Position numbers and translations under genes: made by a program. A DNA stretch of 64,000 nt from assembly GCA_003142575.1 (NCBI GenBank), contig PLMS01000093.1, forward strand, positions 2,995 through 66,994, given 5' to 3'. The notes beneath the pieces are model-generated. The model saw nothing but the letters and a program-made list of their open reading frames with translations. It was not told the DNA's origin and did not search any database. Position 1 is the first letter of the stretch, and every line of letters starts with the position of its first letter. The DNA is from Ignavibacteriota bacterium. Lineage in GTDB: Bacteria > Bacteroidota > Ignavibacteria > UBA10030. Below are positions 47,244 through 50,089 of the stretch, piece after piece.

Positions 47244-47462
47244 AGGCTGGTGAGAAGTTGGAACTCCTTCCCAGCCATATTTACGTCCTTCACAGTTTAC
47301 AACTTCGCATTCACTGCTGATTTACCGGCGTAGATCGAGTTTGTTCCGAGTTCTTCCTCAATGTGGAGTAATTGATTCTACTTCGAATGCTGCAACAACT
47401 TTGTTCCCTTTGATTCAAAGTGAATCGATCATCTCGACGGTTTTCAGGTCTTCAATACTGCT
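47244..47462. repeat. Chimeric diverged duplicate: enolase 3' end plus 3'UTR hairpin (~48742..48874) fused by microhomology to an internal MTase fragment (~45012..45102).
   Basis: Hand alignment gives about 80 bp matching the last ~23 enolase codons plus the stop, then about 88 bp matching the MTase interior. The junction lies at attgattNtacttcg, which is shared by both sources. There are about 9 substitutions and all are transitions. Confidence 0.7.
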
Positions 47463-47484
47463 ATAGAAATTTCCTCATCGCGTT

Positions 47485-48627
47485 TTAATTAATATTAAGA
47501 ACAAGCGGTATTGTCACTCGGAATGTCGTTCCTTCTTCTTGCGATGTAGTAAACGAAACTTTTCCATGGAGATACCGCTCACTTAGTAGTTTCATACTGT
47601 ATGTGCCAAGTCCACGGTTCGAACCATTTGTAGAAAATGATCGTTGGAACATTTGCAACTGAACATTTCTTGGAATAAACGATGTATTGTGCACCCAAAA
47701 TTCAACAGATTCGTTGTGATGAGCACAGCCTACTGTAACTATTCCTTTTTCTGGAGATGCTTCGAGTGCATTCTTAATCATATTGCCAAGAACACGTCCC
47801 AATAAAGTTGAGTCGGATACAAACATAATTCGCATTGCATGAAGATCAACGCTGATTGTACGATTTTCCGCAACAATGTGGTGGCGATAGAATTCGCAAA
47901 CTTCTTGTATGCAATCAATTGAATTAATCTCTTTTGGGTTTGCTGCTAATTCATTGCTTTCTGCTGCCGCAAGTTCAACTTGTGCTTTAATTTCATCAAT
48001 AAGTTTTCTCAAAAGATGTTTGATTGTACTCAGACATTCTTTCTGAATTTGCGGATCTTCTTCTTCCATCATCTCAAAGTACCCAGTGAGTCCTCCTGTC
48101 GTGTTTAATACATCATGGAAAAATATTCGTTCTAACGCACGACGGCGTTTTTCGTGACTAATATCGCTAATCGTAAAAATCGTGAATGTTCCATGATAGG
48201 TATTCAGAGGTGTTGCGGTAACTCTCAATTCCAATGGGTCTAAATTTCCTTCTCGCGATATTAAATATTCCTGAACACTTGCATTTCCTTTCTGGCTGAC
48301 AAGGATGGCACGCACAGCACCGCATGTACGGCAATATTCTGTTGTACCGCATCCACCTTCGCTTTCTATTGCATGTATACATCGCAACACTTCGCCATGT
48401 CTTTTCCCATGTGAAGAATGTTCTCCAGATAATTTCATGAATTTGTCCATTGCATGATTGGCAAAAACAATTTGCCTGTGTTCATTCAAAATTACAACTA
48501 TGATAGGTACAGCATTCAGTACTTCACTCTGTAAAGAGTTTTTTATAAAAAAATTAATTTGTTGATTCAAATCTTCTGTGGTTGCACGTTCTGCTGGCGC
48601 ATATTGTGTCGGTAATGATGTAATCAA
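47485..48627 (-). CDS. Cytoplasmic sensor histidine kinase with an N-terminal 4-Cys (C-x10-C-x6-C-x2-C) PAS-like sensor domain.
   Basis: H-box FFHDVLNTTGGL. HATPase GNMIKNALEASPEKG ... GLGTYSMKLL. Cys cluster CIHAIESEGGCGTTEYCRTCG. No TM segment. Confidence 0.75.
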   Translation of the reverse strand: MITSLPTQYAPAERATTEDLNQQINFFIKNSLQSEVLNAVPIIVVILNEHRQIVFANHAMDKFMKLSGEHSSHGKRHGEVLRCIHAIESEGGCGTTEYCRTCGAVRAILVSQKGNASVQEYLISREGNLDPLELRVTATPLNTYHGTFTIFTISDISHEKRRRALERIFFHDVLNTTGGLTGYFEMMEEEDPQIQKECLSTIKHLLRKLIDEIKAQVELAAAESNELAANPKEINSIDCIQEVCEFYRHHIVAENRTISVDLHAMRIMFVSDSTLLGRVLGNMIKNALEASPEKGIVTVGCAHHNESVEFWVHNTSFIPRNVQLQMFQRSFSTNGSNRGLGTYSMKLLSERYLHGKVSFTTSQEEGTTFRVTIPLVLNIN

Positions 48628-48793
48628 GACAATCTTCCTTTATTTTGTAAACTTTTGTCAGCAAATTCTAAGCAATTAAAAAATAATATCAAAACGCGAG
48701 AGAATATTTCCACACAACGAAGCAGTGAAGAGTGCGCCATGTGGCTGGGAGTGTACCTCCCTCCCAGTTTCTTCGTGTTCTTCATCGATATCT

Positions 48794-50089
48794 TTACAAC
48801 TTCGCGTTCACCGCTGATTTACCGGCATAGATCGAGTTTGTTCCGAGTTCTTCCTCAATGCGAAGTAATTGATTATACTTCGCAACTCGGTCGGTGCGGC
48901 TTGCAGAACCGGTCTTGATCATTCCGCAATTCGTCGCCACGGCGATATCGGCGATCGTTGTGTCTTCCGTTTCACCGGAACGGTGGCTGATCACGGAAGT
49001 GTAGCTTGCTCTCTTTGCCATCTCAACAGCATCGAGTGTTTCGGTAAGTGTGCCAATCTGGTTAACCTTGATGAGAATGGAATTCGCAACACCCATTTTA
49101 ATTCCTTTGGAGAGATACTCGACATTCGTCACGAATACATCATCGCCGACAAGCTGAATTTTTTTGCCAACAGCATCTGTAAGGAGTTTCCAACCATTCC
49201 AATCGCCTTCTGCCATTCCGTCTTCCAATGAAGCAATCGGATATTGCTTTATCCAGTTTTCATAGAACTTCACCATTTCTTCTGATGATTTTTCGGATTT
49301 ATCCGATTTGCCAAATATATATTTTTTCTTAGCCGTATCATAGAATTCACTCGCCGCCGGATCAAGTGCAATGTAAATCTGTTTACCCGGTTTGTATCCA
49401 GCTTTCGTAATTGCCTCAAGAATAACTTCTATGGCTTCATCATTTGATTTCAAATTTGGCGCAAATCCGCCTTCATCACCAACTGCAGTGTTATATCCTT
49501 TTTTCTTCAATACTCCTTTGAGTGTATGAAAAACTTCTGCACCACTGCGCAACGCCTCGGCGAACGTGGGAAGCCCAACCGGGAAGATCATGAATTCCTG
49601 AAAATCCACATTATTGTCAGCGTGCGATCCGCCGTTTACGATATTCATCATTGGCGCAGGAATAACTTTTGCATTCGTGCCGCCGATGTAACGATACAGA
49701 GGTATTTTCAATGATTGTGCCGCTGCTTTTGCAACTGCAAGAGAAACACCAAGAATGGCATTTGCACCTAATTTTGCTTTTGTTGGTGTACCGTCTAATG
49801 CAATCATCATCTTATCGATACCGACTTGATCGAGTGCATCAAATCCTGTAACTTCTTTGCATAAGATGGTATTGACATTCTTCACTGCCTTCAAAACACC
49901 CTTGCCTGAATAACGCGATTTATCACCATCACGCAACTCAACAGCTTCGTTTTCACCTGTCGAAGCGCCGCTGGGAATTGCCGCTCTGCCGATCGTGCCA
50001 TTTTCTAATTCAACTTCGACTTCAATTGTAGGATTTCCTCGTGAATCGAGGATTTCGCGTGCCCATACATCAGTAATTGTTTGTGACAT
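48794..50089 (-). CDS. eno: Enolase (phosphopyruvate hydratase).
   Basis: [27 protein letters not shown]-terminus, full-length conservation. I use the internal start at MSQT. Confidence 0.95.

Follow-up and report, generated by a model that had tools for sequence, protein, structure and literature searches.

Two groups of described systems come closest to the locus presented here: sensors holding an iron-sulfur (Fe-S) cluster in a PAS domain, and DNA rearrangements at methyltransferase (MTase) genes. Within the first group, the kinase NreB is encoded beside the regulator NreC in the nreABC operon, and its staphylococcal form has a fourth cysteine (X2C). NreB represents an Fe-S PAS kinase of Staphylococcus and Bacillus with a [2Fe-2S] cluster and the motif CX2CX11C, showing three conserved cysteines in B. 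licheniformis (PMC13478379). OrpR, a sigma54 activator of Desulfovibrio, senses the redox potential by a PAS domain with a [4Fe-4S] cluster, for which C52, C61, and C65 (C-x8-C-x3-C) as well as a possible Asp/Glu ligand have been reported (PMC8359166). In respect to the second group, insertion with long target duplication and allelic substitution have been described at restriction-modification (RM) and MTase loci (Furuta, Abe and Kobayashi 2010, PMC2853133). Here, we analyzed a stretch of 64,000 nucleotides (the window) from a metagenomic contig of an Ignavibacteriota bacterium (GCA_003142575.1, PLMS01000093.1, positions 2,995 to 66,994), in which a sensor histidine kinase gene is found between the enolase gene eno and a DNA MTase gene, accompanied by two pairs of long direct repeats. 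With a probability of roughly 70%, we explain the locus as two alleles of one chromosomal slot, one with the kinase and one with the MTase, joined in tandem, with the kinase being a PAS sensor with four invariant cysteines (Cys4) and a presumed metal centre.

The kinase gene (47485..48627, on the minus strand like all features below unless stated otherwise) encodes a soluble protein of 380 amino acids (aa) starting from a TTG codon. The gene is intact: it is preceded by an upstream spacer and a ribosome-binding site (RBS) of its own, and its product combines the PAS fold and the invariant Cys4 loop with a kinase core that is likewise intact. A preliminary description, made from the letters of this DNA, had reported a kinase devoid of transmembrane segments, and none is apparent in our analysis either: the best 19-residue Kyte-Doolittle mean amounts to 1.32 and coincides with a PAS beta-strand of the AlphaFold2 (AF2) model. 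The full-length AF2 model, calculated with 47 homologs (pLDDT 80), displays a PAS-DHp-CA architecture, with WalK, YF1, VicK, and ThkA representing the best matches in the PDB. The N-terminal sensor domain (aa 1-156, 48160..48627) was modeled separately (aa 1-165) with a pLDDT of 86 and a pTM of 0.84, resulting in a canonical PAS topology with strands 43-47 and 52-56, helices 58-66, 77-80, and 103-112, and strands 117-123, 132-143, and 146-155. Among the top 50 Foldseek matches of this model, essentially all are PAS or LOV sensor domains (DosP, LOV, NifL, FixL, and MmoS, E-values of 1e-6 to 4e-5), which bears out the PAS-type sensor that had been supposed. On sequence level, Pfam PAS matches stay below the gathering scores (PF00989, E 0.004; PF08448, E 0.021; PF13188, E 0.035), several homologs carry precomputed PAS_4, PAS_8, or PAS_9 matches, and a sequence search against solved structures in the PDB matched the kinase core alone and nothing related to the sensor domain.

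Within this domain, the cysteines are arranged as C83-x9-C93-x5-C99-x2-C102 (48322..48381), thus confirming the four cysteines noted before, with the two longer spacings, previously given as x10 and x6, each corrected by one residue. All four are invariant in 47 of 47 aligned homologs, likewise R76, G78, E79, G94, and T95, with H85 being nearly so; the Cys4 motif is present in 269 of 269 family proteins, 263 of them having exactly the x9 spacing. The loop lies between helix 77-80 and helix 103-112 of the PAS model, which, following textbook PAS topology, we take to be roughly the site of cofactor contact in heme, flavin, and LOV PAS domains. A second motif at the N-terminus, TxFAPAERA, is as conserved as the Cys loop itself.

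The DHp region harbors the predicted phospho-acceptor H171 (codon 48115..48117) in the H-box FFHDVLN, located on a helix (157-187) that is paired with helix 192-223 in the AF2 model. H171, D172, and N175 are invariant, and the H-box is considered to be of an atypical type since the Pfam HisKA model gives no match. For the catalytic ATP-binding (GHKL) domain (aa 272-375, 47503..47814), HATPase_c was the only Pfam model detected in the protein (E 6e-14, 52.8 bits with a cutoff of 26.4), and NCBIfam provided generic kinase-core matches alone, far below every family cutoff. N282, N286, R338, G339, and G341 of the N and G2 boxes are invariant in the alignment of 47 homologs, and the domain matches the structures of HK853, CusS, and WalK. 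In comparison with HK853, the family has "WVHN" at aa 306-316, where we assume typical kinases to have the G1-box DxGxG. The family also gives weak matches to HATPase_c_5 (AgrC/LytS-type). Together with the H-box missed by HisKA, this marks the catalytic core as an unorthodox subtype. A PADLOC scan of the kinase matched no defence-system family.

In comparison with the described Fe-S sensors, the kinase shares with NreB the layout of a soluble cytoplasmic protein with an N-terminal PAS domain, conserved cysteines as presumed sensing site, and a subsequent DHp-CA core. In contrast to the CX2CX11C motif of NreB, it shows C-x9-C-x5-C-x2-C, and there is neither a linked regulator beside it nor an nre-type operon; no sequence relation of its N-domain to NreB was detected in the PDB or NCBIfam searches. 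The earlier reference to NreB is consequently to be read as a functional analogy, and membership in the NreB family is not supported. OrpR, from an anaerobe and compared here by its description and likewise as a functional analogy, has in common a PAS domain with closely spaced conserved cysteines, the output being an AAA+ transcription activator instead of a kinase; homology to it was not detected. The best structural matches, on domain as well as on full-length level, are cofactor-binding PAS proteins, i.e., FixL and DosP (heme), LOV and YF1 (flavin mononucleotide), NifL and MmoS (flavin adenine dinucleotide) as well as ThkA, WalK, and VicK. Their sequence identity to the kinase is limited to 8-20%, none of them has the Cys4 loop, and the kinase in turn is devoid of their heme-ligating His and LOV Cys contexts.

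Extension of the analysis toward homologs assigned the kinase, as a typical member, to a large Cys4-PAS family that is functionally uncharacterised. More than 6800 homologs were scored; a search with the N-domain alone resulted in 3461 clusters (50% identity) at E<=1e-3 and 2075 at E<=1e-10, with nearly all proteins having a length of 375-395 aa and only few carrying a C-terminal receiver (REC) domain. The family is present in at least 592 GTDB species-representative genomes of at least 10 phyla, among them Ignavibacteriota, Bacteroidota, Chloroflexota, Desulfobacterota, Acidobacteriota, Planctomycetota, Verrucomicrobiota, KSB1, and Omnitrophota. Judged from the names of the metagenome-assembled genomes (MAGs), we take the carriers to be mostly anaerobic or sediment-dwelling lineages. 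Neither a curated family model nor a solved structure was found for the family in Pfam, NCBIfam, and the PDB, and our literature search turned up no paper on it.

The lack of an adjacent response regulator, as stated in the preliminary description, holds true: the sole REC open reading frame (ORF) in the window (31173-31607, plus strand, Pfam Response_reg E 2e-24) is located 16 kb from the kinase. Orphan status is the norm of the family. Of 80 family loci, 12 have a REC ORF within 4 kb and 68 have none, so that an orphan sensor of this type cannot be regarded as unusual, and its position upstream of an MTase gene is a by-product of recombination. ORF clustering of the same 80 loci revealed no recurrent neighbour gene, with the largest non-kinase cluster occurring in five loci. 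The REC ORF of the window was considered as cognate regulator and rejected, showing only a generic similarity of ~30% to REC proteins that neighbour family kinases; the gene following it has a metallo-beta-lactamase fold. In some Ignavibacteria, the family kinase is divergent from an operon, which in one locus (L087:2242-4652) consists of a 131-aa REC protein, a zinc-ribbon protein, and an MshEN/T2SSE (PilB-like) ATPase. Elsewhere, REC and zinc-ribbon (L100), REC and MshEN-like ATPase (L107), or REC alone (L139) were identified in this arrangement. It is possible that the operon represents an output pathway in those lineages.

Conservation of the four cysteines in every homolog checked renders a metal or Fe-S site a reasonable hypothesis, and on the basis of the sequence such a site is likely. 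The metal centre bound by the four thiolates would most probably be an Fe-S cluster labile toward O2 or redox changes, for which NreB and OrpR set the precedent in PAS domains; Zn in a structural or regulatory role would be the other option. The state of the centre would then, via the PAS-DHp junction, set the autophosphorylation of H171, and phosphotransfer would proceed to an unlinked response regulator. An Fe-S cluster is favoured due to the position of the site in the fold, the conserved polar residues around it, and the bias toward anaerobic lineages, none of these being decisive. Some results speak against this part of our explanation. The Cys loop has the lowest confidence in both AF2 models (pLDDT 57-76), which would be no more than compatible with a missing cofactor, and no cognate regulator was identified by the REC scan of the window, the 80 family loci, or REC similarity. 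Furthermore, four cysteines including a CxxCG knuckle are equally compatible with structural Zn and with an Fe-S cluster.

The latter point leads to the strongest rival, in which a structural Zn site stabilises a PAS insertion and the signal originates elsewhere, e.g., from a small-molecule ligand in the PAS pocket or from a partner protein binding at the TxFAPAERA motif, the conservation of which matches that of the Cys loop. Zn(Cys)4 sites commonly consist of one CxxCG knuckle and two more cysteines, and the spacing found here is neither that of NreB nor that of OrpR. Zn on the PAS domain of a kinase reportedly has a precedent in WalK (10.1101/405365). On the other hand, the loop occupies roughly the position of PAS cofactor contacts, the fold search itself providing whole-domain PAS matches alone; the conservation around the site (H85 nearly invariant, E79 and R76 invariant) suggests a role beyond that of a structural clip; and the family is concentrated in lineages that we presume to be anaerobic or microaerophilic. 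These points are not decisive, and we regard structural Zn as a serious possibility with somewhat less than an even chance. With similar reserve, we tentatively propose that the family constitutes a large unstudied class of cytoplasmic kinases that may bind a redox- or gas-labile Fe-S cluster by a Cys4 motif unlike that of NreB or OrpR and may signal to unlinked regulators.

Regarding the locus, the gene order in minus-strand direction is eno, a 165-nt spacer, the kinase gene, a 22-nt spacer, repeat B', repeat A', 66 nt, the MTase gene, and a phosphoglucomutase/phosphomannomutase (PGM) gene. The enolase ORF (48794..50179) comprises 461 aa (431 aa in the JGI call, as in the gene call of locus L001) and matches Enolase_N (E 1e-61) and Enolase_C (E 3e-132) of Pfam. 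Its last 28 codons and stop, forming the functional 3' end, constitute repeat A (48793..48882). The 90-nt copy A' (47296..47385) is 93% identical to A at a spacing of 1497 nt and non-coding, so that, as had been seen before, two enolase 3' ends bracket the kinase. A second pair of repeats had been missed. The MTase gene contains in frame the original B (45012..45102, aa 710-739), of which B' (47372..47462) is a decayed copy of 91 nt and 96% identity, translating as SSIEDLKTVEMIDSL*IKGNKVVAAFEVES and rendered non-coding by a Trp-to-stop change (asterisk). The segments between the repeats measure 1.4 kb and 2.3 kb, both without transposase or integrase.

B' and A' overlap by 14 nt (47372..47385, minus strand CGAAGTAGAATCAA), 13 of which are common to the end of B and the start of A, corresponding to MTase codons 735-739 and eno codons 403-407 (431-aa numbering). 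The apparent stop codon TAG in A' results from the B-type base at the single mismatch of this microhomology, which places the exchange within its last 6 nt, AATCAA. A' is followed by an intrinsic-terminator-like hairpin (47245-47276), a T-run, and the MTase leader (together 47230..47295), a region identical in 35 of 42 positions to the eno-MTase spacer of locus L052 and thus the native eno-MTase intergenic region. At the other side, the eno-kinase spacer (48628..48792) belongs to the kinase allele, being 94% identical in L171 and absent from eno-MTase loci. It contains, as read from the sequence, a hairpin at about 48745-48767 and the RBS AAGGAAG, and furthermore a sigma70-like site (TTGATA-16-TAGAAT, 48692..48665), with the score of the promoter scan not exceeding the shuffle expectation. 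The 22-nt spacer between kinase stop codon and B' (47463..47484) is part of a kinase/B junction which is the same in kind in the window, L003, L082, and L171 and therefore points to a single origin.

Comparison with relatives revealed the slot between eno and PGM in several states. A metagenome scan with the MTase identified eno-MTase-PGM without kinase in L007, L008, L010, and L067, and eno-MTase adjacency also in L052, L062, and L009. Within loci containing all three genes, the identities to the window drop together (eno 81/75/77%, MTase 75/72/69%, PGM 74/62/62%), for which reason the MTase is regarded as long-standing occupant of the slot. Kinases in this slot are limited to a narrow group (79-100% kinase identity), and the nearest homologs outside of it (65%), found in other Ignavibacteriota MAGs, have a DUF5700 gene on one side and a spermine-synthase-like gene on the other. 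Together with a GC content of 0.384 (eno 0.438, window 0.439) and the lowest third-position GC content (GC3) of the 42 window ORFs of at least 150 aa (0.281; mean 0.432, sd 0.054), in agreement with the low GC noticed earlier by eye, this supports the previous view of the kinase as an acquired newcomer downstream of eno.

Loci with intermediate structures are most informative. In L082 and L171, originating from two samples, the kinase and the same short spacer are followed by the MTase from codon 710 onward only; the remnant runs in L082 through codon 840 into PGM, and the L171 contig ends soon after B. In L003, eno and kinase are followed by 75 nt of B', to which the MTase leader is attached directly, A' being absent. 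The contig of P0005 shows eno-kinase-PGM with no MTase and a kinase of 79% identity. A and A' correspond to a single copy in L052, L007, L008, and others, and B and B' to a single copy in L082 and L171. The structure of the window is found at 99.5-100% across both repeats in L001, L002, and L170, and in all of eight further contigs with an identical MTase the kinase is directly upstream; these contigs stem from one ENA assembly and from no fewer than five other JGI samples.

As these states show, this Ignavibacteriota-like lineage has more than one allele of the eno-PGM slot, and we propose that the widespread form eno-terminator-MTase-PGM is the older one. Because L082 and L171 keep the MTase only from codon 710, a segment of ~1.3 kb with promoter and kinase would in one sublineage have replaced the terminator and MTase codons 1-709, resulting in kinase-22 nt-MTase codons 710-840-PGM. 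The window would then represent [eno-A-promoter-kinase-spacer-B'] fused at the microhomology to [A'-terminator-MTase...B...-PGM]. In this event, an illegitimate crossover at the 14-nt microhomology would have connected the remnant B' with A', the enolase tail belonging to an intact eno-tail/terminator/MTase segment, with the other end being resolved by homologous exchange in eno or in the MTase 3' part/PGM. DNA of a relative, taken up by homology-facilitated illegitimate recombination, or a reintegrated excised circle could have served as source, both leading to the same product. A/A' and B/B' are reciprocal long target duplications of one join and not attachment (att) sites; for A/A' this follows from the interval being free of any recombinase and from relatives carrying the kinase without the enolase duplication.

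The structure resembles the cases described by Furuta, Abe and Kobayashi (PMC2853133) in that the insert lies between direct repeats of more than 30 bp, each with a single counterpart in the other allele, in that transposases and integrases are lacking and the length of the insert stays below 20 kb, and in that an MTase gene is involved and the inserted segment has a lower GC content than its surroundings. It differs by the presence of two reciprocal duplications meeting at one microhomology junction, and by the content of the insert: the published criterion needs R and M genes, in place of which we find the kinase or the 5' part of a single MTase. Further cases exist in the same slot. In the kinase-less L008 (82-238), a 37-nt direct repeat of the enolase tail (92%, spacing 120) surrounds an 83-nt hairpin-bearing insert just upstream of the MTase. 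In L079 (3844-7556), a gene for a 341-aa Porin_O_P protein lies between eno and MTase, and 43-nt direct repeats (4885-4927 and 7514-7556, 93% identical) flank the MTase, suggesting mobility of the MTase unit itself, accompanied by a long target duplication. Considering these two duplications, the slot behind eno gives the impression of a recurrent hotspot. Homology-facilitated illegitimate recombination during natural transformation, reportedly described by de Vries and Wackernagel in 2002, is alike in having one end anchored by homology (here eno or the MTase 3' part/PGM) and the other at a short microhomology. It yields a foreign segment plus a partial duplication, as observed here, the event itself being deduced from the product alone.

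The tandem join of the two alleles has to be weighed against an intragenomic history, in which a microhomology-mediated tandem duplication reaching from the eno tail to MTase codon 739 was followed by replacement of the terminator and the MTase 5' part of the first, disrupted copy by the kinase. Several observations stand in the way of our explanation at this point. This history yields the same product, and it would allow all of L082, L171, L003, and the P0005 contig to have arisen by deletion, e.g., by recombination of B' with B, which the 91-nt direct repeats make easy. Moreover, the junction of the P0005 contig is known from gene coordinates alone, and the relatives compared included no donor whose enolase tail is identical to A', A' being nearer to the window's own A (93%) than to that of any other lineage (88% for L003, 81% for L052). 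Kinase nucleotide identities to the window are higher for L082 and L171 (94%) than for L003 (86%), and B' being shared by the window and L003 would imply its loss in L082. However, the non-coding B' and A' are only 4% and 7% off B and A, compared with 14% between the kinases of the window and L003. Such a divergence seems low for an event predating the split of these two, unless gene conversion has taken place, and the intragenomic history is for this reason rated lower. It needs more events overall, and the differently placed joint of L003, 75 nt into B', fits an independent join as well as a deletion. We consider it unlikely, though clearly ahead of the readings that follow.

The preliminary description had proposed a cargo module of about 1.4 kb, integrated site-specifically at the 3' end of eno in a manner that regenerates the gene end and displaces the copy A'. 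This is what the 90-nt repeats bracketing a gene of atypical GC3 evoke, the more so as wider relatives have no kinase between eno and MTase, and yet a self-contained module is not what the interval contains. The kinase is the sole plausible coding ORF between the enolase repeats according to ORF list and Pfam, with no integrase or other recombinase, and a 77-nt MTase fragment, fused to the inner repeat, would have to count as part of the module. A' is not a displaced enolase end either, since it is followed by terminator and leader as in L052, both native to the MTase allele, and is the native upstream neighbour of that allele. The kinase occurs at the same junctions, but without the flanking duplication, in L003, L082, and L171, an outcome that the preliminary description itself had named as refuting its view, and family kinases are found in unrelated contexts across 80 genomes without any recurrent neighbour family, recombinases included. 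A mobile module is accordingly improbable. The reverse order of events, a resident kinase and an inserted MTase as suggested by the P0005 contig, was dropped in view of eno-MTase-PGM across the wider clade and of MTase remnants behind the kinase. Least credible of all is a chimeric metagenome assembly of two co-occurring strains, one with kinase and one with MTase, which the metagenomic origin of the window and the occurrence of both allele types in related populations might suggest, but which is countered by the same junctions in contigs of several JGI samples and the same gene order in the ENA assembly, by repeat copies too different (4-7%) for an assembler to collapse or bridge them by mistake, and by the B'-MTase adjacency in the 14%-diverged L003, so that an assembly artefact was ruled out on the strength of independent assemblies.

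With regard to the remaining genes, the MTase (44707..47229) is encoded by an 840-aa ORF (825 aa from the ATG at 47184) and is Type II-like according to Pfam N6_N4_Mtase and PADLOC MTase_II (E 3e-37), comprising a Zn-ribbon-like insert and an NmeDI_C-type C-terminal domain (precomputed PF27126). Within the latter (aa 611-840, 44710-45399), repeat B covers a D...EVES motif resembling a degenerate PD-(D/E)xK core; searches of the local Pfam copy and of the PDB gave no match for the C-terminal 230 aa. A separate R gene was not detected at the locus, and the protein may be a fused RM enzyme or an orphan MTase, either being possible. Its stop codon overlaps the ATG of PGM (43310..44707, Pfam PGM_PMM I-IV), the right-hand anchor of the slot. 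Just upstream of the enolase gene, a small Cys-rich ORF with DUF6485 (50315-50668) is present, in the same position as in L001 (69 aa in the JGI call). A second histidine kinase (HisKA and HATPase_c, 56268-57512, plus strand), also without adjacent regulator, is located between the genes for adenylosuccinate synthetase and an M28 peptidase.

On annotation level, these results correct the reading of the enolase-tail repeat, which is a scar left by recombination of two alleles of one slot and does not delimit a mobile element; that kinase and MTase are neighbours has no functional meaning. The rearrangement belongs to an ordinary kind of event, unusually well resolved here, and the locus provides a clean natural example of microhomology-mediated joins that stack alternative alleles in tandem, leaving direct repeats that can later resolve to either allele. 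More than this locus, the Cys4-PAS family might deserve experimental attention. If the site does bind an Fe-S cluster, it would represent a third, independent cysteine solution to Fe-S sensing in PAS domains and would reveal a widespread O2 or redox input in mostly anaerobic, sediment, and subsurface lineages of poorly studied phyla.

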